A stretch of 20,175 nt of DNA from Planctomycetota bacterium. GTDB lineage: Bacteria > Planctomycetota > J058 > JARGOJ01. Shown in pieces: positions 7,156 to 17,857 of the stretch; position 1 is the stretch's first letter; the number at the start of each line of letters is the position of its first letter. The stretch lies in NCBI GenBank assembly GCA_029210225.1, contig JARGOJ010000031.1:1841-22015 (forward strand). Direction: 5' to 3'. The position numbers and the translations under genes are program-made. The notes under the pieces were generated by a model. That model was given only the letters and a program-made list of their open reading frames with translations, did no database searches and was not told the DNA's origin.

Positions 7156-9816
7156 GTGGATCTCTTCCAGCAGTTTTACCGCCAGATTAACGATATTGAT
7201 CCGATTGAGACTCAGGAGTGGATTGAATCCCTTGAGTCTGTTGTTGAGTGCATCGATCGTTCTCGTGCGGAATTCTTGCTTTATCGTTTGCTTAGTCGCG
7301 CTCGCCAGCTTGGTGTGAGTATTCCTCATACCACTCGCACACCTTATATGAATACGATCCCTCCGACCCTCGAGCCGGAGTTCCCCGGGGACGAGGAGAT
7401 TGAGCGTCGTATTCGTCGATTGATCCGCTGGAACGCGGCGGTCATGGTGACGCGAGCCAATAAGAAATATGATGGGCTGGGGGGGCACCTTTCTAGCTAT
7501 GCATCGTCCGCGAGTCTGTATGAAGTGGGGTTTAATCACTTCTTCCGCGGTAAAGATGGTCGCCAGCGTGGCGACCAAATCTTTTATCAAGGTCACGCGG
7601 CGCCAGGAATGTATGCCCGGGCGTTTTTGGAAGGTCGTCTTTCGACGAACGACTTAGATCATTTCCGACGTGAGTCTGGAAAGGGGAAGGCGGGATTATC
7701 CAGTTATCCTCACCCTCGCCTCATGCCCGAGTTCTGGGAGTTTCCAACCGTTTCGATGGGGCTTGGTCCGATCAATGCGATTTACCAGGCCCGATTCAAC
7801 CGTTACCTTGCGGCTCGTGGTTTGGCAGAGACCGCGAAGTCTCGGGTTTGGGCTTTCCTTGGGGATGGTGAAACGGACGAGCCGGAGAGTTTGGGGGCCT
7901 TGTCCCTAGCGGGACGCGAGCGTCTCGACAACTTAATCTTCGTCGTCAACTGTAACCTGCAGCGCTTGGATGGCCCTGTCCGTGGAAACGGCAAGATCAT
8001 TCAGGAATTGGAGTCAGTCTTCCGTGGGGCAGGTTGGAATGTCATCAAGGTCATTTGGGCTCGGGAGTGGGACGATTTGTTCCGCGCCGACACTCATGGC
8101 TTGCTCTTAAAGCGAATGACAGAGATTCCTGACGGTGACTTCCAGCGTTTTCCGACGATGAGTGGCGCAAAGCTCAGGCAATTCGTCTTTGGAAAGTATC
8201 CTCGTTTGCTCCGATTGGTTGAGCATTTGAGTGATGAGCAGCTCTGTCGTTTGCGCCGTGGTGGTCACGATTACCACAAGCTCTACGCGGCTTATAAAAT
8301 GGCTGAAGAGAGTGATCGTCCAACGGCCATTCTGTGTAAAACAGTGAAGGGTTGGACTTTAGGAGAGGGTTTTGAAGCCCGAAATGTGACTCACCAGATC
8401 AAGAAATTGACGGAGCGTGAGCTGCATGTTTTCCGCGATCGGTTGGAGTTGCCCATTCCTGATTCCAAGCTCAAGGATGCGCCGTACTATCACCCGGGCA
8501 AGGACAGTAAAGAAGTCAAGTATATGCTGGAGCGCCGCCGCGTTTTGGGGGGTTGTCTTCCGAAGCGTCGGGTAGTTGTTCCGGGTATTGAGATCCCTGG
8601 AAACAAAACCTACTCAGCATTCTATGAAGGAACGAAGGGTGATCAGAGCGCATCGACAACTATGGTCTGCGTGAGAATTCTTCATAACCTTTTAAAAACA
8701 AAGGACTTTGGCCAGAGAATCGTGCCAATTGTCTCTGATGAGGCTCGTACATTTGGTATGGAGCCGTTGTTCCGTGAGATTAAGATTTACTCGGCGACGG
8801 GTCAGACATACACCCCTGTGGATGCGGGGGTTCTCATGAGCTACAAAGAAGCAAAGAATGGCCAGTTGCTTCAAGAGGGTATTACGGAAGCGGGGGCTCT
8901 CGCGTCGTTTACGGCGTCGGCGACGAGTTATTCGTCCCATCGTCAATTTACGATTCCGTTCTTCATCTTCTATTCGATGTTTGGATTTCAGCGGGTCGGC
9001 GATTTGATTTGGGCTATGGCGGATGCTCGAGGCCGAGGATTCTTGCTTGGAGCGACTGCTGGACGAACCACCTTGAACGGTGAAGGTTTGCAGCATCAGG
9101 ATGGTCATAGTTTATTGGCGGCTTCGACGGTTCCGTCCTGTCGCGCTTATGATCCGGCTTTTGCGTTTGAGATTGCGATCATTATCGAAGATGCGATTCA
9201 TAAGATGTATGTCGAGAATCAGGACCTCTTTTACTACCTGACGCTTTACAACGAGAACTACCCAATGCCTGCTATGACGGGGGATTGGAAGGACGGGATT
9301 TTAAGGGGTCTTTACCTCTTCAAGCCTGGATCTGAAAAGGGAGTCAAGGCTCAGTTGCTCGGGAGCGGTCCGATCATGCAACAGGTATTGAAGGCTCAGG
9401 GTGTTCTTGCTGAAAAGTATGGAGTCTCTGCGGATGTTTGGAGCGTGACGAGCTATGGCGAGTTGCGTCGAGATGCCTTGGAGGTGGATCGTTGGAATCG
9501 TAAGCATCCGGACGCGCAGGAGAAGTTGCCGTTCGTATCGAAGTGCCTGAATCCAACGGAGGGTCCTATTGTTGCGGCTTCCGACTATATGAAGGCCATG
9601 CCAGATTTGATTCGTCCATGGGTTGAGAAGCCCTTTGTCTCTTTGGGAACGGATGGATTTGGTCGGAGTGATACAAGAGAAGCGCTTCGGCGGTATTTTG
9701 AAATCGATTGGGAAACAATTGTAGCGGCGACATTATCCAAATTGGTTCGTGAAGGTCAGCTGTCAGCGGATGTCTATCATGGTGCCGTCAAAGATCTCGG
9801 ACTCGAAATCGAATAG
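7156..9816 (+). CDS. aceE: Pyruvate dehydrogenase E1 component, homodimeric type, 886 aa
   Basis: Full-length homodimeric-type E1 (~886 aa), i.e. AceE. GTG start at 7156 preceded by GAGGGGG. No aceF or lpd follows. Confidence 0.9.
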   Translation: MDLFQQFYRQINDIDPIETQEWIESLESVVECIDRSRAEFLLYRLLSRARQLGVSIPHTTRTPYMNTIPPTLEPEFPGDEEIERRIRRLIRWNAAVMVTRANKKYDGLGGHLSSYASSASLYEVGFNHFFRGKDGRQRGDQIFYQGHAAPGMYARAFLEGRLSTNDLDHFRRESGKGKAGLSSYPHPRLMPEFWEFPTVSMGLGPINAIYQARFNRYLAARGLAETAKSRVWAFLGDGETDEPESLGALSLAGRERLDNLIFVVNCNLQRLDGPVRGNGKIIQELESVFRGAGWNVIKVIWAREWDDLFRADTHGLLLKRMTEIPDGDFQRFPTMSGAKLRQFVFGKYPRLLRLVEHLSDEQLCRLRRGGHDYHKLYAAYKMAEESDRPTAILCKTVKGWTLGEGFEARNVTHQIKKLTERELHVFRDRLELPIPDSKLKDAPYYHPGKDSKEVKYMLERRRVLGGCLPKRRVVVPGIEIPGNKTYSAFYEGTKGDQSASTTMVCVRILHNLLKTKDFGQRIVPIVSDEARTFGMEPLFREIKIYSATGQTYTPVDAGVLMSYKEAKNGQLLQEGITEAGALASFTASATSYSSHRQFTIPFFIFYSMFGFQRVGDLIWAMADARGRGFLLGATAGRTTLNGEGLQHQDGHSLLAASTVPSCRAYDPAFAFEIAIIIEDAIHKMYVENQDLFYYLTLYNENYPMPAMTGDWKDGILRGLYLFKPGSEKGVKAQLLGSGPIMQQVLKAQGVLAEKYGVSADVWSVTSYGELRRDALEVDRWNRKHPDAQEKLPFVSKCLNPTEGPIVAASDYMKAMPDLIRPWVEKPFVSLGTDGFGRSDTREALRRYFEIDWETIVAATLSKLVREGQLSADVYHGAVKDLGLEIE

Positions 9817-10032: not shown

Positions 10033-11307
10033 ATGCTTTTTGAACTGAGATTTGTTCATGGCGTGCGTGCGGGTCAGGTTATCAATTTAGATGATAATCA
10101 GACCGTGGTTCTTGGACGTGGAACAGAGACAAACTGTCGCATTCAAGATCCGTCGATTTCACGACGGCACTGCCAGATTACGAACTGTCCGCAGGGCTTA
10201 CTCATAGCGGATCTTGGCTCGTCCAATGGGACCTACGTCAACGGCCAACCCATCAGTCATTGGGTAGCGTTGAACTCTGGGGATCAAGTCGTTCTTGGAC
10301 AAAATCAGGTCGAGATCCATGCGGCGATGATGGTGCAGCAACACCTCTGCACTAGCTGTGGCCGTGAGTTCATGCCTATGGAGTTGACGCAAGGTCGCTT
10401 CAGCCGTGACCCCTCTGGTCGTCTCATTTGCACGGACTGTATGTCAAAGTTCGATTTCGATCCGCACATGATCGAGGGTTACGTCGTCGAGAGCAAGCTC
10501 GGGCAGGGTGCTTTTGGCGCTGTTTTCCGGGCGGTTCAACAGCAAACAGGCCAGGTTGTTGCGTTGAAGACGGTGCGACCCCAGCTCGTTCAAAGCGAGA
10601 GAGACATCGCTCGCTTCTTCCGAGAGGCCAAGGCTGGCGCGGCCTTAGTTCACCCTAATATCATTCGTATTTACGACGCGGGTGAATCTCGTGGCTGTTA
10701 TTACATTGCTATGGAGTATGTTGAGGGGAAGGAGATCGGGAAGCTAATCGAGGAATATGGTCAGATCAACATCGGCTATACCTTGCGGGTTGGAATCCAA
10801 ATCGCGAATGCACTCCAGCATGCTTACGAACGTAGTATTGTCCACCGTGATATTAAGCCTGATAACATTCTCGTTACGGCTCAAGGGCAGGCGAAGCTTG
10901 TCGACTTTGGCTTGGCGAAGAACTTCCAGAGCGCGGGGGTTTCAGGTTTGACGGCGCCGGGAGAGGGCATGGGAACTTTGGCGTATATGCCGCCAGAGCA
11001 GTTGGACAATGCGCTCATGGCTGACCAACGCTCTGACATTTATTCCCTGGGGGCGTCGCTCTATCATATGTTGACGGGGAAGCGTCCCTTTAATGAGAAG
11101 ACGACGCGAAAGTTCATTATGAAAATATTGAACAAGATGCCCGACCCAATTCGCGACCATAATCAGAGTGTTCCACCGGATTTGGAAGAAATCATTGAAA
11201 AGGCCATGGCTAAGGAACCTGAGGATCGTTATGAAATCCCTGAGGATTTTGAACGCGACTTGAAGGACCTCTTTGAACAGATGGCGCGCAATCACGGCGG
11301 GACTTGA
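10033..11307 (+). CDS. FHA domain / C4 zinc-ribbon / Ser-Thr protein kinase, 424 aa
   Basis: N-terminal FHA motif (VVLGRG..CRIQDPSISRRHCQI....GSSNGTYVNGQPI). CTSC...CTDC zinc ribbon. Hanks kinase motifs (LGQGAFGAVF, ALKTV, HRDIKPDNILV, DFGLAK, APE-like PPEQ). SD GGGGAG lies 5 nt upstream of the ATG. Confidence 0.85.
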   Translation: MLFELRFVHGVRAGQVINLDDNQTVVLGRGTETNCRIQDPSISRRHCQITNCPQGLLIADLGSSNGTYVNGQPISHWVALNSGDQVVLGQNQVEIHAAMMVQQHLCTSCGREFMPMELTQGRFSRDPSGRLICTDCMSKFDFDPHMIEGYVVESKLGQGAFGAVFRAVQQQTGQVVALKTVRPQLVQSERDIARFFREAKAGAALVHPNIIRIYDAGESRGCYYIAMEYVEGKEIGKLIEEYGQINIGYTLRVGIQIANALQHAYERSIVHRDIKPDNILVTAQGQAKLVDFGLAKNFQSAGVSGLTAPGEGMGTLAYMPPEQLDNALMADQRSDIYSLGASLYHMLTGKRPFNEKTTRKFIMKILNKMPDPIRDHNQSVPPDLEEIIEKAMAKEPEDRYEIPEDFERDLKDLFEQMARNHGGT

Positions 11308-11512: not shown

Positions 11513-12895
11513 ATGAAGAGTGAGAGGTCTGTGAATATGAGAATGGAGTCCATGGCTGCGCGGCGTTTTGTTTCTTGGTCTGCCGCCGCTTGTGTGATCT
11601 TGGGCGTGGGGATAGCTCAGGCCCTCATCGCCGACTGGCGTTCTGCTCTTGCTGAAGACCGGGAAATGGTCGAGAATCACAAGAACGCGCTTGTTTCCGT
11701 CATGAAAAAAGTCAATCCAGCTTTCATCTTCATTGGTGGGGGATCCGGCGTCATCATTTCAGAAGATGGCTACATGTTGACGAATAATCACGTGGCTCAG
11801 TCGCGCAAAGTGTGGCAAGTTCATACTCCTGGTGGGAAGAGATACACAGCGGATGTTGTGGGATCCGATCCGCGTGGAGACTTGACTCTTCTCAAATTAC
11901 AAATCAAAGAGGGTGTGAAGATGCCCTTTGTCACCTTTGGAAATTCTGACCTCGCGAAAGCTGGAGACACTGTCTTTGCGGTCGGAAATCCGATCGGTAT
12001 TGGAAATGACGATTACTCACCGACCTTTACTTTAGGTGTGATCTCCGTGGTCAACCGGAATCATTCAAACTATACCGATTGTGTCCAGACAGATGCACCG
12101 ATCAACCCGGGTAATTCAGGAGGCCCCCTTTTGAATCTGAAAGGTGAGCTTCTCGGCATCAATGGAATGATTCAAACTCGCTTCCAAAGCCGCGTGAACT
12201 CAGGGGTCGGCTATGCGATCTCAGTTGAGCAGTGCAAACTTTGGATTCCAGTATTGAAGGCTGCTAAGGGGGGATCTTATCCTCATGCAACGACTTCAGG
12301 CATCAGCGTCCGAAAGAACTTCTCGGAAAGGGGTGCATTGGTAAGGTCTGTTGGGGGCGCTGCAAAAAAAGCCGGAGTTTTGGATGGCGATCGAATCTTG
12401 AAGATTGATGGACGGGTCGTTCGGAACCACGCTCGATTTGGTGGAATTGTTGGGATGTATCCTGGCGGATCGAAGGTCACGTTGACGATTGACCGTAAGG
12501 GAGAGGAAGTCAAGATTCCATTGACTCTGGACAACCGCGGTGGCCGTCGTTTGAGCCGCGCTCCAACTCAGCCTCGTCAGAATCCTCGACAAAACCCAGC
12601 TCCGAATCGTGGCAACGGTGCCTATTTGGGTTGCCGACTTCGTCCGACAGCTGGTGGCGTGAATATTTCAGAGATCGTCCCTGGTGGCCCCATGTCGAAA
12701 TCGAAGTTGAAGGTTGGCGATTTAATCAAAAGCTTTAATGGAGTCAAAGTCGCGAACTTAGATGCTTTGATCACGATGTTGGCGAAGAAGAAACCTGGCG
12801 ACAAAGTCACCTTTGGAATCACTCGTGGTGGCAAGGCGCTGGACATCGAGATGGCCTTGGGTCGTCGTCCTTCGAGACGGATGTCTCAGTCTTAG
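11513..12895 (+). CDS. HtrA/DegP-family trypsin-like serine protease with two PDZ domains, 460 aa, probably secreted
   Basis: Catalytic triad contexts TNNHV (His), GDL (Asp), GNSGGPLLN (Ser). Two PDZ-like segments separated by a Q/P/N/R-rich linker. Signal-peptide-like MAARRFVSWSAAACVILGVGIAQA. The true start may be an internal ATG at 11537 or 11552. Confidence 0.8.
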   Translation: MKSERSVNMRMESMAARRFVSWSAAACVILGVGIAQALIADWRSALAEDREMVENHKNALVSVMKKVNPAFIFIGGGSGVIISEDGYMLTNNHVAQSRKVWQVHTPGGKRYTADVVGSDPRGDLTLLKLQIKEGVKMPFVTFGNSDLAKAGDTVFAVGNPIGIGNDDYSPTFTLGVISVVNRNHSNYTDCVQTDAPINPGNSGGPLLNLKGELLGINGMIQTRFQSRVNSGVGYAISVEQCKLWIPVLKAAKGGSYPHATTSGISVRKNFSERGALVRSVGGAAKKAGVLDGDRILKIDGRVVRNHARFGGIVGMYPGGSKVTLTIDRKGEEVKIPLTLDNRGGRRLSRAPTQPRQNPRQNPAPNRGNGAYLGCRLRPTAGGVNISEIVPGGPMSKSKLKVGDLIKSFNGVKVANLDALITMLAKKKPGDKVTFGITRGGKALDIEMALGRRPSRRMSQS

Positions 12896-12924
12896 TCAAC
12901 CTTTCCAAAATTGGGAAAAAGCGT

Positions 12925-12951
12925 GAAGAGCAGGAGGATCCTGCTCTTTTT
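12925..12951 (+). terminator. Intrinsic terminator downstream of the HtrA-like gene
   Basis: AGAGCAGG-AGGAT-CCTGCTCT hairpin (12925-12945) followed by TTTTTTG. Confidence 0.65.
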
Positions 12952-12971
12952 TGCGTTAACGCTGTCGAGAT

Positions 12972-13297
12972 TTGATACCTGGGACGAGGCGGTTGTGATA
13001 CCTGGGATCATGGGAATCACAAAAATGGGGTCTTATCTGGGTCATAGGAAGAGAATAATGGCGAAGGCATATTGATACCTGGGACCAACAACATCGGGTA
13101 CCTGGGACCAACGATGTTTTATACCTGGGATCGACTTCAACTTGTGTTTGGGTTCCTGAATCCTGGTACCTGGGACCTCGGAGCCTCGGGTCAATTTTGA
13201 TACCTGGGATCGGGGTGACCGAGCGTTTCGTCTTCACTGACGAGCTTTTTATGGACGGACAGCTATGCGTTGATTCTCGCTTCGTTGGTACCTGGGA
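12972..13297 (+). repeat. Array of eight direct repeats of a 12-13-bp motif (G/T)(A/G)TACCTGGGA(C/T)C, plus two degenerate copies, all in one orientation
   Basis: Exact copies at 12972, 12995, 13072, 13095, 13118, 13163, 13197 and 13285. Degenerate copies at 13032 (TATCTGGGTCA) and 13149 (GGTTCCTGAATCC). Start-to-start spacings are 23, 77, 23, 23, 45, 34 and 88 bp. Copies 13072/13095/13118 share the extended unit TACCTGGGACCAAC. Confidence 0.75.
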
Positions 13298-13343
13298 TCG
13301 ATTTGAAGAGTCCTTGGACCCTCAACGAGATGTCTGCTTATTC

Positions 13344-13787
13344 CTATAAGATGGAAAGATTGGGATTTATGGATGAGAGTCTCTGTTTGATGGTCTTAAT
13401 GGACTGGGAGACTTTCAGTTGGTCGAGACCGAGGATCATCCCAATCTCAGCGTCTTCAAGCTCTTCAACGTAGTGCAACATGATGATGTGTTGTTCTTGT
13501 CGTGTCCGGTGCCGGGCGACCAAGGCGGGGAAGGAGGCGGCTTCTTGGGGGCTTTTTGGAATGAAGGTCTGATCGGCGACGAGGGCGTCTTTGACGAGCG
13601 CGGAAAATTCTTCATAGGAGAGTCCAAGGGCGTCGGCGACTTCTGCGTCGTTTGCGGGTCGTCCGAGGGATAGTTCAAGGTCTCCAATAAGTTCGAGGAG
13701 ATCTCTATTCTTTGTGGATGATGGTGGGAGACGTTGAATTTTACCGGACCGAGTGAGGTCGAGAGCGATTTTATGTTGATCCATCAT
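13344..13787 (-). CDS. Truncated sigma-factor paralogue of about 147 aa containing only sigma-70 regions 3 and 4
   Basis: Aligns to the C-terminal half of the adjacent FliA-like protein: LELSLGRPANDAEVADALGLSYEEFSALV vs LETILGRKANDLELAEHLDISLKELDSLV; HIIMLHYVEELEDAEIGMILGLDQLKVSQSIKTIKQRL vs LIVMLYYFEELTMREIGMILDLSESRVCQLHARIVKRL. There is no region-2 sequence. ATGATG at 13787/13784 is preceded by AAAGGGG. The track ORF extends in-frame to a TTG at 13883. Confidence 0.6.
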   Translation of the reverse strand: MMDQHKIALDLTRSGKIQRLPPSSTKNRDLLELIGDLELSLGRPANDAEVADALGLSYEEFSALVKDALVADQTFIPKSPQEAASFPALVARHRTRQEQHIIMLHYVEELEDAEIGMILGLDQLKVSQSIKTIKQRLSSINPNLSIL

Positions 13788-13921
13788 TGAGTACCCCTTT
13801 TGCCTGTCATACACAGACAGTACCCGACTCACAAGAGAGTCTAAGTTTAGTGATGATTGAATATAGAGACTAGTGCCGAACAAACAAAACCACTACTAGC
13901 AGTCGTTCTTTACAGACCTAT

Positions 13922-13950
13922 ACTATATGCAGTGTGACGAAAGATCGCAA
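13922..13950 (-). promoter_or_regulatory. Candidate sigma-70-type promoter for the truncated sigma gene
   Basis: On the minus strand: TTGCGA (13950-13945), 17-bp spacer, TATAGT (13927-13922). About 125 nt upstream of the ATG. Confidence 0.3.
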
Positions 13951-14043
13951 AGTTCTTTTAAAGTCAAAAATCCTACTTCATTAAGTAGTTGGTAGAATCC
14001 CAATACTTATATATCGGAGTGGTGAGTAAGGAAGTGAAGGCCG

Positions 14044-14082
14044 AAAAAAAGGATAAAGCGCGCCTGCTTCGAGGCGCGCTTT
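14044..14082 (-). terminator. Intrinsic terminator of the fliA-like gene
   Basis: Perfect 11-bp stem AAAGCGCGCCT / AGGCGCGCTTT with loop GCTTCG (14055-14082). On the minus strand it is followed by AUCC plus U7 (the + strand A7 at 14044-14050). It lies 50 nt past the stop at 14135. Confidence 0.7.
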
Positions 14083-14134
14083 CGCGTGTGTGCACAGATT
14101 TTATGGGTTTAGAGGCGGATTCCTAGAGAGGATC

Positions 14135-14941
14135 TCAGGAGATGAGTTCGTCTCTGCGATCACCGAGTTCCTTCTGAAGACGTTTCACAATTCGAGCATG
14201 AAGTTGGCACACTCTAGACTCACTCAGGTCCAAGATCATACCAATCTCGCGCATTGTGAGCTCTTCAAAGTAGTAGAGCATGACGATCAGGCGTTCTTTC
14301 ATGTTGAGTCGCTTAGAGACGAGCTCCATGAAATCGGTGGACTGGATTTTGTCGATAGGGTCGACTTCTTTTTTGTCGGCAATGATATCGATGGTTTGAA
14401 CGGCTTTTCCACCGTCATCATCGTGCCATTTATCGGAGAGACTCATGATTTGAGTGGCCGTCCCACCGCGAACCAAGGAGTCGAGTTCTTTGAGGCTGAT
14501 GTCAAGGTGCTCGGCGAGCTCTAAATCGTTCGCTTTGCGTCCCAGAATCGTCTCAAGCTCTTGTTGAGCCGCGCCGACCTTGGAGGCTTTTGTGCGAACT
14601 AGGCGAGGCACCCAGTCAGACTGACGGAGGTGGTCGAGAATCGCGCCACGAACGCGGAGAGCACAGTATGTTTTGAACTTCACGGCGCGTTCGATATCGT
14701 ATCCGTCGATCGCATCCATGAGGCCGAAGACGCCGGCGCTAAACAGATCGCCGAGTTCGACGCTTTGTGGTAACTTTGTGAGTAGGCGCTCAGCGCTGTA
14801 TCGGACGACTGGTAAGTAATGCTCGATGAGGCGGTTTCTGATTCCTTCGTCTTTTGTCTTCTTGTATTCTTCCCACAACTCTCTTGGCGCTTCTTTGACT
14901 TTACCCCGTGAACGGCTTGCATCCCTTGTAATAACTGTCAC
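14135..14941 (-). CDS. fliA: Sigma-28-type alternative sigma factor (FliA/WhiG/SigD family), 268 aa
   Basis: Regions 2, 3 and 4 are present: region 2 (DLFSAGVFGLMDAIDGYD..FKTYCALRVRGAILDHLR), region 4 HTH (ERLIVMLYYFEELTMREIGMILDLSESRVCQLHARIVKRLQ). GTG start at 14941 with SD AAAGGGG 9 nt upstream. Confidence 0.85.
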   Translation of the reverse strand: MTVITRDASRSRGKVKEAPRELWEEYKKTKDEGIRNRLIEHYLPVVRYSAERLLTKLPQSVELGDLFSAGVFGLMDAIDGYDIERAVKFKTYCALRVRGAILDHLRQSDWVPRLVRTKASKVGAAQQELETILGRKANDLELAEHLDISLKELDSLVRGGTATQIMSLSDKWHDDDGGKAVQTIDIIADKKEVDPIDKIQSTDFMELVSKRLNMKERLIVMLYYFEELTMREIGMILDLSESRVCQLHARIVKRLQKELGDRRDELIS

Positions 14942-15003
14942 TATTATGACCCCTTTAATTTATGTATTTCAAAATCCCACTGCCCGAGAATTTGGAACAC
15001 CGT

Positions 15004-15033
15004 CATAGACCCCCCTAGAGTCTATGGATAGAC
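15004..15033. promoter_or_regulatory. Operator-like cluster of inverted half-sites 63-92 bp upstream of the fliA-like start
   Basis: CATAGAC-N9-GTCTATG (15004-15026) overlapping GTCTAT-GG-ATAGAC (15020-15033). Three perfect ATAGAC/GTCTAT half-sites plus a degenerate CTAGAG. Confidence 0.4.
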
Positions 15034-15229
15034 GAGCGACTTCACCCAAAGCTCTCTATCTTGTGTCCCTCTCGACAAAAGACACGATAGCAAGAGTTAT
15101 TATTAGAAGCCAAGTCGGAATTAAAGATGTCTCCATAGTTTTTTCCAAAATAGGGATACATTCACAATCCGCCCCTCTCATGTAGACTGTAAAGCAATAT
15201 AAACAATAGACTTAAGATATAGCGAGGGT

Positions 15230-15919
15230 CCTGTATTCAAATTGTCAAGAAAAGAAAAAAGCCCTCAACGATTGTTGACACAAAAGTGCACTTGAGCAAA
15301 AAAGCACATTTTGTAGGGGTCTTGAGAATTAAACAACACCATATAGTAGAAAAACAAGCAAGATCTAGGCTTCCACCAGCTATTTCATGACCGATAAAAC
15401 GATCAAATTTGAGACTAACCTTAGAACATCCTCTCCTCAAAGATACCTAGTTGCAATCAACACACGCTTATGGCGCCAGTATCACACACCACCAAGACAT
15501 GAAAGCTCAAAAAACGACAGACGGAGCGATCCGTGCAAAGCCAATAAACAAGCCAATTCTCGCGTACCTGGGACAAATCGATTCTCCTCGACATCTTCCC
15601 CCCAAAGCATCCACACTCGCTCCCGCCTCACACTTCTCCACCAATCTGCTTCTTGAAAAAATGTCGCACCCCGCTCAAAGCCCCCAAAACCAACTCTCCT
15701 ACACAAGAACAACTCAAGAACGTCGTGTTTCACGCCCCAACATCCTCGCGCCCCAACAACACCGGCGTTAAACCCTAGAAAGAGAAACAAGCTTCCCTAT
15801 CCTTATTTATATAGGCGAAAAAGGTCTCACTACTCTTTACGCCCGCATATATCGATAAGGGACAAAGCGCCTGTCGGTGGCTTCCATTACAATGAAGCTC
15901 CACAAACGCAACATATCCA
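15230..15919 (+). other. About 690 bp of strongly G-depleted, CA-rich non-coding DNA (+ strand) immediately upstream of dnaG; part of a 978-bp non-coding interval (14942-15919)
   Basis: No convincing ORF on either strand; the track ORFs there translate to low-complexity S/P/T/Q/H-rich peptides without SD. The + strand has very few G (runs of C and A, e.g. CCCCCAAAACCAACTCTCCTACACAAGAACAACTCAAGAAC). Confidence 0.5.
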
Positions 15920-17857
15920 GTGCCAGTACCTGTGAAAGAGGTTGCCGTGGGTCGAATACCCCCAGAACAAATCGATTTGATTCGCGAACGCGCCGATATC
16001 GTCGCACTCATCGGTGAACGCCTTCAACTCACTCAAAAAGGTCGGCAATTTTGGGCCTGCTGCCCATTCCACGGCGAAAAAACCGCATCCTTCAGCGTTC
16101 ACCCAGAACGACAGATATACAAATGCTTCGGCTGCCAAAAAGGTGGCAACATCTTCGGCTTCCTTAAAGACTACGAACGCGTCAACTTTCCCGAAGCCGT
16201 CCGCATGGTCGCCGAAACCGTCGGCATCGAAATCAAAGAAGAGAAAAGCACCAAAGCTTCCCAAAAACGGCAAAGCGAAAGAAAAGGACTCCTTGAAGTC
16301 GCCGATGCCGTTTGCCAATACTTCGAAGACCAACTCTGGACCCCAACACTGACTCACGGACGCAAATACCTCAAAGAACGCGGCATCACCAAAGAAAGCG
16401 CCAAAAAGTTCCGCGTCGGACTCGCCCCCCAAGGCTGGGACAACCTGCTGAAATGGGCCGAAAAGAATCGCGTCTCCACAGACTCCCTCGTCAAACTCGG
16501 ACTCCTCGTTCAACGAGAAAAAGACGGCCGAAACCGCTGCTATGACCGATTCCGAGATCGACTCATGTTCCCCATCTCCGACGACCGCGGTCGAGTCATC
16601 GCCTTCGGAGGACGACGCTTCTCCGACGACCCAGAAACTCCCAAATACATAAACTCCTCAGAAGTCCCCGGCCTCTTCGAAAAGCGACGCGTCCTCTACG
16701 GTCTCCACCACACCAAAGAATCCAGAGCCCGACGCCTCATCATTGTTGAAGGATACACCGACGTGATCATGGCCGTCCAAGCCGGCGTGCTAGGCACCGT
16801 CGCCGTACTTGGGACCGCCTTTGGACCCGATCACATTCCCCTCGTTCGTCGCTTCGCCGACCAAGTGATCGTCCTCTTCGACGGCGATGCCGCCGGCCAA
16901 GCAGCCGCTCAACGATCCCTGGGAGCTCTCGTCCCCGTCGACCTCGAAGTCCGCGTCGCCATACTCCAAGGCGCCAAAGACCCATGCGACCTCATCGTCG
17001 AAAAAGGACCCGACGCCCTCAACCAAATCGTTGATACCGCCCCCGAAGTCTTCGACTTCCTCCTCGACTCACTCCAGGATCAAGCCCAACAATCACTCTC
17101 CGCACGAGCCAAAGCCATTGAAGAAATTCTCAAGCTTCTCGCTCCCATGGACCCCATAAGACTCCATCTCCATATTGGACGCTTTGCTCACCGCTTCTCC
17201 ATTCCCGAAGAAGAACTCCGAGAACGCATCAAAGCCGCTCGCAATCCCAATAAAGGGAAAAAATCTAACGACGGACCCGATGGCGACAATCGCTCCAACG
17301 ATCAAAACAGACGGCGCTCATGGACCCCCAAATTCAAAGGCAAAGGCAAAAAAGGCTTTCCACAAAAACCCGACCCCTTCGCGAACAGCCCCTCCCCCAA
17401 ACAATTTAACTTTGGCCGCGGCGCTGAAATGAAAATCCTAGAAGCCCTCCTCGCCGCACCAACCCACATAGCAACTGTCTTCACAATCCTCACTCCTAGA
17501 CACTTCTCCGAAGGCCCCTCACGGAACCTCGCGATCCGGCTCCAAGTCGCTGCCGACCTCGGACAAACAGTCAGCGAAGCCAACCTTTACAATGAACTTG
17601 AAGGCCGAGAACTCGAACTTCTCACATACCTCGGATCGAAAATTCACGAAGGACAACAACGGGAAAAAGACTATGAATCCGAACTCGCTCCAGAAGCATG
17701 CCACCACATCGTGAAAACCCTCCGGAAGCAACAAAGGGAAGAAGTACGTGGCCTCCTTAAAGAAGCCCTCCGTGAAGGTCGGCAAGAAGATGCCCTCGCC
17801 CTAGAAAAAGAACTCGATTCACTATTCCAAGAAATTCAATCTGCAAACAAAAGTTAA
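15920..17857 (+). CDS. dnaG: DNA primase DnaG, 645 aa
   Basis: CHC2 zinc finger (CCPFHGEKTASFSV..YKCFGCQKGGNIFGFL). RNA-polymerase/Toprim core (IVEGYTDVIM, VLFDGDAAGQAAA). C-terminal helicase-binding region after a basic low-complexity linker. GTG at 15920; a GTG at 15947 (MGRIPPEQIDLIRERADIV) is an alternative start. Confidence 0.9.
   Translation: MPVPVKEVAVGRIPPEQIDLIRERADIVALIGERLQLTQKGRQFWACCPFHGEKTASFSVHPERQIYKCFGCQKGGNIFGFLKDYERVNFPEAVRMVAETVGIEIKEEKSTKASQKRQSERKGLLEVADAVCQYFEDQLWTPTLTHGRKYLKERGITKESAKKFRVGLAPQGWDNLLKWAEKNRVSTDSLVKLGLLVQREKDGRNRCYDRFRDRLMFPISDDRGRVIAFGGRRFSDDPETPKYINSSEVPGLFEKRRVLYGLHHTKESRARRLIIVEGYTDVIMAVQAGVLGTVAVLGTAFGPDHIPLVRRFADQVIVLFDGDAAGQAAAQRSLGALVPVDLEVRVAILQGAKDPCDLIVEKGPDALNQIVDTAPEVFDFLLDSLQDQAQQSLSARAKAIEEILKLLAPMDPIRLHLHIGRFAHRFSIPEEELRERIKAARNPNKGKKSNDGPDGDNRSNDQNRRRSWTPKFKGKGKKGFPQKPDPFANSPSPKQFNFGRGAEMKILEALLAAPTHIATVFTILTPRHFSEGPSRNLAIRLQVAADLGQTVSEANLYNELEGRELELLTYLGSKIHEGQQREKDYESELAPEACHHIVKTLRKQQREEVRGLLKEALREGRQEDALALEKELDSLFQEIQSANKS

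Follow-up and report, generated by a model that had tools for sequence, protein, structure and literature searches.

A conserved, helically phased array of a genome-wide DNA word between htrA and sigL in a small group of uncultured Planctomycetota

An array of same-orientation repeats in the htrA/sigL gap

The gap between htrA and sigL in a metagenome-assembled genome (MAG) of an uncultured Planctomycetota bacterium holds an array of short direct repeats, and this array is the densest, conserved cluster of a word that is scattered through the genomes of one small uncultured Planctomycetota group. We analyzed it within a stretch of 20,175 nt from a 22-kb contig, hereafter called the window. Eight exact copies of the core TACCTGGGA lie in the gap at 12976-13297 (core starts 12976, 12999, 13076, 13099, 13122, 13167, 13201, and 13289), all on the + strand, and the 13-mers (K/G)RTACCTGGGAYC cover 12974-13299. 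The whole window contains 11 exact cores compared to 0.07 expected, a number that was reached in 0 of 100 shuffles, and the array has a density of 24 copies/kb compared to ~0.5/kb elsewhere. With a probability of roughly one half, we suggest that the repeats serve as a cooperative, one-faced platform for a putative sequence-specific DNA-binding protein, which would also use single sites genome-wide.

Eight exact same-orientation repeats between convergent genes had already been described in an earlier note on this DNA, whose coordinates are 2-4 nt off the core and denote the same objects. The 23-bp phasing it reported for 12972/12995 and 13072/13095/13118 is real, with cores at 12976/12999 and 13076/13099/13122. 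Its two degenerate copies are present as weak remnants only, either by eye at 13020-13045 or as weight-matrix hits at 13160, 13174, and 13310, which score 6-9 bits compared to 18-21 bits for true copies. The gap and its features are as follows.

11513-12895, +: htrA, HtrA/DegQ-type serine protease (MDF1660747.1), left flank of the array gap
12896-13343: htrA/sigL gap, holding the array
12925-12949, both strands: G+C-rich hairpin with T runs on either side, scored on each strand as a terminator and conserved in 5/5 genomes
12974..12986, +: copy 1, GATACCTGGGACG
12997..13009, +: copy 2, GATACCTGGGATC, 23 bp past copy 1
13020..13045, +: decayed remnants caaaaaTGGGGtc and cttatCTGGGtca, 23 and 35 bp past copy 2, seen by eye and scoring below site level
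13074..13086, +: copy 3, GATACCTGGGACC
13097..13109, +: copy 4, GGTACCTGGGACC
13120..13132, +: copy 5, TATACCTGGGATC
13165..13177, +: copy 6, GGTACCTGGGACC
13199..13211, +: copy 7, GATACCTGGGATC, with a TTTT tract 5′ of it
13287..13299, +: copy 8, GGTACCTGGGATC, 45 bp ahead of the sigL stop codon
13344-13787, −: sigL, 147-aa sigma-like FliA paralogue (MDF1660748.1), right flank of the array gap

Copies 3 and 4 have ...GGGACCAAC in common, indicating a recent 23-bp duplication. As the note had also held, the gap is non-coding, because none of the open reading frames (ORFs) across it is conserved in the four other genomes described below.

Conservation of the array in related genomes

Relatives were found by protein look-ups in Logan assemblies, giving four genomes besides the window: SRR23272332 (L122), SRR23287147 (L137), SRR23272279 (L139), and SRR23272297, for which two contigs (L121 and L138) end inside the array. 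Identity to the window copy is 81-86% for HtrA and 67-80% for sigL. Gene order is the same and the array lies in the same gap in all five genomes, with 8, ~7, 7, 5, and 6 copies if cores with one mismatch are counted. The orientation is shared by 31 of the 33 array copies, the exceptions being the first copy beside the terminator in L122 and L139.

The spacers are essentially unalignable between most of the five genomes, and the cores are under strong purifying selection, conserved against a fast-evolving background. Between L122 and L139, for example, the 11-mers are identical at 74/77 positions (96%) compared to 209/355 (59%) in the remaining gap without the terminator (Fisher p=5e-12). One copy of L122 is decayed in L139, and recent duplications of 23, 25, and 58 bp are visible among the arrays; the copies thus turn over, with cores and location being maintained. 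A more distant relative (HtrA 66% and sigL 60% identical) has a gap of only 80 bp between the htrA and sigL homologues, indicating that the large array is young.

An assembly collapse of a longer tandem repeat, which the note had named as a possible artifact, is not compatible with our data, as each spacer is unique and the gap is covered end to end, with 5-8 copies, by four independent assemblies. The assembly of SRR23272297 breaks within the array (L121 11420-11466; L138 reverse complement 1-40), at a 25-bp tandem duplication of copy plus spacer. It is likely that arrays of the word fragment short-read assemblies of this clade.

Site structure and helical phasing

The logo of 32 array copies reads t-t-T-n-G-R-T-A-C-C-T-G-G-G-A-Y-C, and site conservation ends at ~17 bp, giving a conserved unit of 11-17 bp. 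The 13-mer is near-palindromic (GRTaCC T GGgAYC). It is nevertheless used as an asymmetric site, since A (position 4) and G (position 10) are not exchanged in any of these copies, the G at -1 (29/32 copies) and its mirror C at +11 (20/32) are unequally frequent, and only one side has the T tract (-5 to -2). At positions 2 (R) and 12 (Y), the combinations are A-T (3), A-C (7), G-C (7), and G-T (4), without covariation, so that a small RNA hairpin is unsupported.

Phasing was assessed with 25 spacings between adjacent same-strand copies from the five arrays (in bp):

Window: 23, 77, 23, 23, 45, 34, 88
L138: 44, 55, 21, 102
L121: 21
L122: 22, 147, 44, 58, 43
L137: 78, 20, 32, 81
L139: 22, 146, 101, 44

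These spacings, which range from 20 to 147 bp with minimal values of 20-25 bp, cluster on multiples of 11.3 bp (Rayleigh R=0.81, family-wise p<0.001), and none of 1000 jittered data sets reached this R at any period from 5 to 40 bp. The pattern persists when arrays homologous to another one are left out (R=0.78, p<0.001) and with spacings >30 bp only (p=3e-4). Odd multiples are frequent (34, 55-58, 77-78, 101-102, and 146-147), which rules out a decayed 22-23-bp tandem repeat as its source. DNA in vivo has a helical repeat near 11 bp, and we know of no reason why recognition at the RNA level should impose such a period. It is mainly this match between spacing period and DNA helical repeat that argues for reading of the array as duplex DNA, with its sites on one face.

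The word is dispersed throughout the genomes of the clade

TACCTGGGA is the top-ranking 9-mer in every contig of the clade. Outside the array, the word occurs at ~0.5/kb (~28 kb of unique sequence, a small sample) on both strands, in genes as well as intergenic regions. A common dispersed word had been considered in the note as an outcome that would speak against a special role of the array: the word is indeed dispersed throughout the clade, but the array still stands out as a strong, conserved local enrichment. Three copies lie in the window beyond the array described in the note (cores at 2270, 2605, and 15565):

2268..2280, −: in the ThiD2/ThiE gene, on the sense strand, codons TCG ATA CCT GGG
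2603..2615, +: in the ThiD2/ThiE gene, antisense, codons CGT CCC AGG, inverted and 335 bp from the other thiE copy
15563..15575, +: in the divergent fliA/dnaG gap, a conserved island in a poorly aligned stretch

Both thiE copies are found at the same positions in L121 and L122. In a codon alignment of the three genomes, 7/7 codons overlapping the two cores are identical, including ATA and AGG, compared to 26% of comparable thiE codons (chance of 7/7 ~8e-5), and third positions right beside the cores vary. What is conserved in thiE is thus the DNA word and not the protein. In L138 the fliA/dnaG gap carries two copies with a spacing of 22 bp, and its counterparts in L122 and L139 have copies with one mismatch.

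A further contig of the SRR23272297 genome, L140, extends 10 kb to the left of murJ. These 10 kb contain 11 exact and 6 one-mismatch copies on both strands, which are located in priA-fpg, fpg, the FGE-sulfatase gene, hyp148-M20, M20, tricorn, and tricorn-murJ and include small clusters with spacings of 25, 25, and 43 bp. Over the whole of L140, the density is 0.31/kb in coding compared to 2.7/kb in intergenic sequence, a nine-fold intergenic excess, and 6 of the 13 exact copies lie within genes. Perfect copies outnumber one-mismatch copies by ~2:1 (11:5 in the window, 13:7 in L140). The orientation of dispersed copies was compared with strand composition and transcription direction in ~13 independent clusters, a sample too small to favour any pattern. 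Contig L141, whose MurJ is 55% identical and whose G+C content is 68.5%, has no exact copy and a single one-mismatch match, and this absence alone bounds the age of the word and the array.

Searches of public genomes for two cores 10-40 bp apart returned at least 120 loci, all of them unrelated tandem, coding, or CRISPR (clustered regularly interspaced short palindromic repeats) repeats among the matches listed. With a stricter two-site pattern, no match was obtained in viral contigs, and the 14 loci from JGI metagenomes are all unrelated tandem or coding repeats with repeated flanks; in one of them, L132, the pattern falls within a low-complexity repeat at the N terminus of a protein. Searches of the literature for the word, for Planctomycetes repeats, or for uptake sequences retrieved only primers or irrelevant papers.

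Two side observations concern these contigs. At 6110-6140 of L140 (reverse complement), between the genes for the M20 peptidase and the tricorn protease, a terminator-like hairpin, AAGGCCTCC-CTACCTGG-GAGGCCTTTTT, has a copy of the word as its loop and as part of its stem. L141 carries a different 24-nt repeat, GCTC-N-CGRGGTAAGCGACATYGG, in two intergenic clusters (4991-5405, +, and 19230-20406, −) with 3 and 6 copies ~200-300 bp apart.

A putative platform for a DNA-binding protein

The general idea of the earlier note, a non-coding, same-orientation, phased DNA-binding array, is the best-supported reading in view of orientation and helical phasing. The repeats would be read on double-stranded DNA by a putative DNA-binding protein recognizing an asymmetric site, a 5′ T-rich tract followed by G-R-TACCTGGGA-Y-C, and the same word would serve as single or paired sites across the chromosome of the clade. 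Five to eight head-to-tail sites at whole helical turns (~11.3 bp) would line up the protomers on one face over ~330 bp, so that aligned protomers could touch and form a cooperative, high-occupancy nucleoprotein complex. Both the binding of a protein to the repeats and its cooperativity are what we infer here. The array might act as a high-capacity reservoir or nucleation point for the protein, like datA or incA/incC, and possibly also as a barrier at the 3′ end of the fliA-sigL transcription unit; such a reservoir, nucleation, or barrier role is the weakest step of the proposal.

The only DNA-binding candidate in view is the product of sigL, which is linked to the word by adjacency and an equally narrow range only. 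It aligns with sigma-3 and sigma-4 of FliA and lacks sigma-2, and its AlphaFold model, of moderate confidence, shows two helical domains. A hidden Markov model search of 1.84 billion representative proteins retrieved only two sigL-family clusters at E<=1e-30, all other matches being generic sigma factors. sigL is about as narrowly distributed as the word and always adjoins the array. It could be a decoy for an anti-sigma factor (FlgM), a competitor for the -35 element, or the binder of the word.

Several observations weigh against the platform. The whole case is built on ~60 kb from five metagenomic assemblies. The uniform orientation of the array is adequately explained by local tandem duplication, so that phasing alone truly argues for cooperativity, and for spacings >50 bp only (n=8) the period of 11.4 bp (R=0.69) is not significant (p=0.21). 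The density of the word outside the array is uneven, from 0.15 to 1.1/kb. A perfect 9-mer at ~0.5/kb that outnumbers mismatched copies 2:1 is unusual for transcription-factor sites, and this frequency of perfect cores is more reminiscent of uptake sequences or of words recognized by enzymes. As the relative with the 80-bp gap shows, the array is not an obligatory partner of sigL. Moreover, the array probably lies within the 3′ untranslated region (UTR) of sigL, because the minus strand has a single terminator-like hairpin from the sigL stop codon to htrA, the bidirectional one beyond the array (12948-12926). Most intergenic copies also read UCCCAGGUA in the upstream transcript, so that a role at the RNA level is conceivable.

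The array resembles several known systems. Plasmid iteron arrays such as incA of P1 and incC of F, downstream of rep, likewise consist of same-orientation asymmetric sites about two turns (20-25 bp) apart; they share with our proposal the binding on one face, the position after a gene for a helix-turn-helix protein, and a likely use as a sink or for pairing, not as promoter operators. However, their unit is 17-22 bp compared to a core of 11-13 bp here, our spacings are irregular multiples of ~11.3 bp, and the locus has no Rep gene, origin, AT-rich region, or plasmid context, the word being chromosomal at ~0.5/kb. datA of Escherichia coli, a DnaA-box cluster that titrates or inactivates DnaA, likewise groups copies of an asymmetric 9-mer at a chromosomal locus outside promoters, with single copies in use elsewhere, and works as a high-capacity binding locus, the role we propose for the array. 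It differs in that our word is unrelated to the DnaA box, the array is tighter and strictly phased, and the binder is putative. parC of plasmid R1, in which ParR binds cooperatively to two blocks of five 11-bp direct repeats, also has repeats in helical register and a one-face protein array, but its repeats are contiguous and upstream of parMR, whereas ours are spread over 330 bp without partition genes and the word is genome-wide. The sponge RNAs CsrB/RsmZ are similar as intergenic loci with many GGA-containing motifs in one orientation and single copies near other genes; in contrast, our array shows no loop display, promoter-and-terminator unit, Rfam match, or covariation, and its spacing rule suggests duplex DNA.

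Alternative explanations

The word could be a DNA uptake sequence like the uptake signal sequence (USS) of Haemophilus or the DNA uptake sequence (DUS) of Neisseria, read by a competence pilus or receptor and spread by biased uptake and recombination. Sequences of this kind have a genome-wide density of roughly 1/kb. The array would then be an accumulation in the least constrained DNA, a convergent-gene gap, enlarged by local duplication. We regard this as unlikely. It is nonetheless the first rival, since the genome-wide properties of the word match those of USS, which have an invariant core, an AT-rich flank, copies on both strands, more perfect than mismatched copies, clade specificity, and retention at synonymous sites (PMC1626085). 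Our word has an invariant 9-bp core with a T-rich flank, is hundreds of times over-represented as are USS/DUS, occurs at its density outside the array on both strands and in coding and non-coding sequence, and is perfect more often than mismatched; its coding copies are held at synonymous sites, it is absent from the relative with the 55% identical MurJ, and several copies lie in or near priA, fpg, and dnaG. On the other hand, uptake sequences are neither helically phased nor ordered head to tail, conserved single-locus arrays of 5-8 direct copies are not described for USS/DUS, and the nine-fold intergenic excess is stronger than the one known for USS. Intergenic copies of USS/DUS tend to be inverted pairs, and to our knowledge sequence-specific uptake competence is not known in Planctomycetota. 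A bolder and rather improbable idea is that the clade evolved its own oriented word system, in which one protein reads thousands of TTTnGRTACCTGGGAYC and the array is a nucleation or organizing centre, e.g., a site where a condensin-like or partition-like machine is loaded onto the chromosome or meets a boundary, or that it has the first uptake-sequence system outside the Proteobacteria.

Alternatively, the array could act as RNA, forming a long 3′ UTR of the fliA-sigL transcript with 5-8 GAUCCCAGGUAYC copies, while other 3′ UTRs carry single copies; these would bind an RNA-binding protein or small RNA and serve as a sponge, stability, or termination element. In line with this, the array is probably co-transcribed with sigL given the position of the terminator candidate, 8 of 9 copies from three L140 gaps (priA|fpg, hyp148|M20, and tricorn|murJ) and from the site directly following M20 have UCCCAGGUA on the sense strand of the upstream gene, and two window copies sit in local hairpin loops (12993-13022 and 13091-13117). 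Yet shuffling the flanks leaves the cores at least as unpaired on both strands (0.38 with native flanks compared to 0.40, and 0.44 compared to 0.48, 28 copies), the region folds no better than its shuffles (z-scores +0.17 and -0.47 for the two strands), no covariation was seen, and Rfam gave no match for the whole window at the gathering threshold or for 12850-15950 at E<=1. The spacing rule of 11.3 nt up to 13 periods has no RNA rationale, the constrained thiE copies occur in both sense and antisense, and the copy in the divergent fliA/dnaG gap is in no 3′ UTR. Taken together, we consider an RNA element distinctly unlikely. A sponge RNA, suggested by the two loops, was rejected as loop display, overall folding, and covariation of positions 2/12 were all negative, and the same results rule out a mini-hairpin GRU-N7-AYC. 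The word might also be a selfish short repeat, either a very small unit like a repetitive extragenic palindrome (REP) or a miniature inverted-repeat transposable element (MITE), or the target or footprint of a mobile enzyme, that multiplies in tolerant DNA and leaves a functionless array. Copy number and positions do turn over (L140 copies after murJ are absent at the same place in the window), local duplications are visible, and intergenic copies are in nine-fold excess. However, there is no shared sequence past ~17 bp and no hairpin, the copies in a conserved enzyme gene do not vary at their synonymous sites among three genomes, the array keeps its place in five genomes, its cores being under strong purifying selection, helical phasing is present, and no transposase or RAYT genes were found in ~60 kb, which makes a selfish origin highly unlikely. 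REP and bacterial interspersed mosaic elements (BIMEs) are imperfect palindromes of 20-40 nt that form hairpins and are essentially extragenic; they were rejected as conservation ends at ~17 bp, positions 2/12 do not covary, and 6/13 exact L140 copies lie in genes. Likewise, the inverted thiE pair does not bound a MITE, as the intervening 335 bp encode a continuous ThiD2/TMP-TENI protein.

Words written hundreds or thousands of times into bacterial genomes for a purpose include Chi, KOPS (FtsK orienting polar sequences), USS/DUS, and HIP1 (highly iterated palindrome 1). Few of them are known, and each revealed a piece of chromosome biology. The clade studied here carries such a word, with nucleotide-level constraint that extends into coding sequence. 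The phased array would be an ideal bait for the reader protein, and its 330 bp could directly serve as an affinity probe if a DNA-binding protein reads the word. Should the word be an uptake signal, this would imply sequence-specific natural transformation in Planctomycetota. Either an own word system or an uptake system would, if true, represent new genome-wide sequence signalling in a phylum whose chromosome biology is scarcely known.

Replication, CRISPR, and promoter candidates

A locus-specific replication or segregation element, i.e., an iteron origin or inc array of an integrated replicon, a centromere, or a polar Ter-like barrier near the terminus, is the least probable of the explanations and hardly to be expected. 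It would account for the direct repeats 20-25 bp apart, about two helical turns as in iterons, their single orientation, the position downstream of a gene for a helix-turn-helix protein as for incA/incC after rep, and a switch in strand composition ~1.7 kb away. The word is, however, genome-wide rather than locus-specific. No Rep family was detected in Pfam/NCBIfam scans of the main ORFs of the window and of the L122/L140 neighbours, no ParA/ParB, Tus, or RTP genes were detected among the scanned main window ORFs, and no Tus or RTP gene was found in the scanned proteins of neighbouring loci. The gap has no AT-rich unwinding region (G+C 0.48-0.50), matches to the DnaA box (TTATCCACA, up to one mismatch) are at chance level (5 in total compared to 2.75 expected, none in the gap), and BLAST searches gave no plasmid or phage match. 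The remnant iteron origin of an integrated replicon proposed in the note is not supported in view of these results and of a synteny that is conserved in five genomes. Nor is the repeat confined to ori or inc loci, as 11 exact copies are found within 10 kb, 10 kb away.

A Ter/RTP-like fork trap tied to the composition switch, also proposed in the note, fails because the switch follows gene-specific codon use. It is located at ~15 kb and coincides with the divergent fliA(−)/dnaG(+) pair. The third-codon-position GC (GC3) skew on the + strand is -0.75 for dnaG (+), compared to +0.48 for the Major Vault Protein (MVP)-like gene (−), +0.51 for sigL (−), +0.32 for fliA (−), and +0.03 to +0.20 for the intervening plus-strand genes. 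The switch reflects a strong preference for C-ending codons in some genes and is weak in a sister genome, where the same plus-strand genes have a GC3 skew of ~0. The copy past the switch (15565) has the same orientation as the array, and there is no opposed set of sites beyond it. In the absence of two opposed orientation groups, and with none of the scanned proteins being Tus or RTP, a Ter-like trap is not supported. The readings as origin, terminus, and integrated plasmid are thereby removed for this locus. The non-coding dnaG leader (14942-15919) is also C/A-rich on the + strand; codon use explains dnaG, not the leader.

A ParB/parS centromere was discarded as well: parS is a 16-bp palindrome related to TGTTNCACGTGAAACA with few copies near the origin, whereas our site is asymmetric and unrelated to it. 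In CRISPR loci, repeats of 23-50 bp alternate regularly with unique spacers of one length, and cas genes are usually present. In agreement with the note, the array is not a CRISPR, as the unit is 11-17 bp, spacings are irregular (20-147 bp), and no cas genes are present in the window. No sigma-70 promoter-like site was found in the gap, and ECF (extracytoplasmic function), sigma-54, and sigma-28 promoters were rejected since no second conserved block lies at any fixed distance from the core.

Neighbouring genes and conserved non-coding blocks

Besides htrA and sigL, the window contains the following genes and intergenic regions.

259-1869, −: murJ
1866-3005, −: ThiD2/ThiE fusion (thiD2/thiE), encoding a continuous ThiD2/TMP-TENI protein
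3068-3982, +: usp
4073-6889, −: gene for a vault-shoulder-domain (MVP-like) protein
7156-9816, +: pyruvate dehydrogenase E1
10033-11307, +: FHA-Ser/Thr kinase
14135-14941, −: fliA/whiG-family sigma factor, upstream of sigL on the same strand (TIGR02479, 240 bits compared to a cut-off of 189.6)
14942-15919: fliA/dnaG gap of 978 bp between divergent genes
15920-17857, +: dnaG
17858-end, +: beginning of rpoD, start not defined

Judged from its sequence, the hairpin at 12925-12949 is probably a bidirectional intrinsic terminator that ends htrA, and it probably also ends the fliA-sigL transcript. Directly after this terminator, the block TTGCGTTAAC (12950-12960) is identical in 4/5 genomes and has one mismatch in L137; beyond it, the sequence of the five genomes diverges immediately.

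The 938-aa protein encoded at 4073-6889 on the minus strand has shoulder and repeat domains of the Major Vault Protein (PF11978, PF17795) and is conserved in the sister genomes. It has no NCBIfam match, and a vault-like protein is unusual for a planctomycete.

Finally, ~200 nt directly upstream of fliA/whiG (window 14942-15150, minus strand) are 93-97% identical in four genomes (L122 13385-13608, L138 4654-4877, and L139 2031-2254 in the relatives), compared to ~59% identity in their other intergenic DNA. The block has no Rfam match, and RNAalifold predicts several hairpins in it, with too little variation for covariation. It could represent a structured leader or a complex control region.

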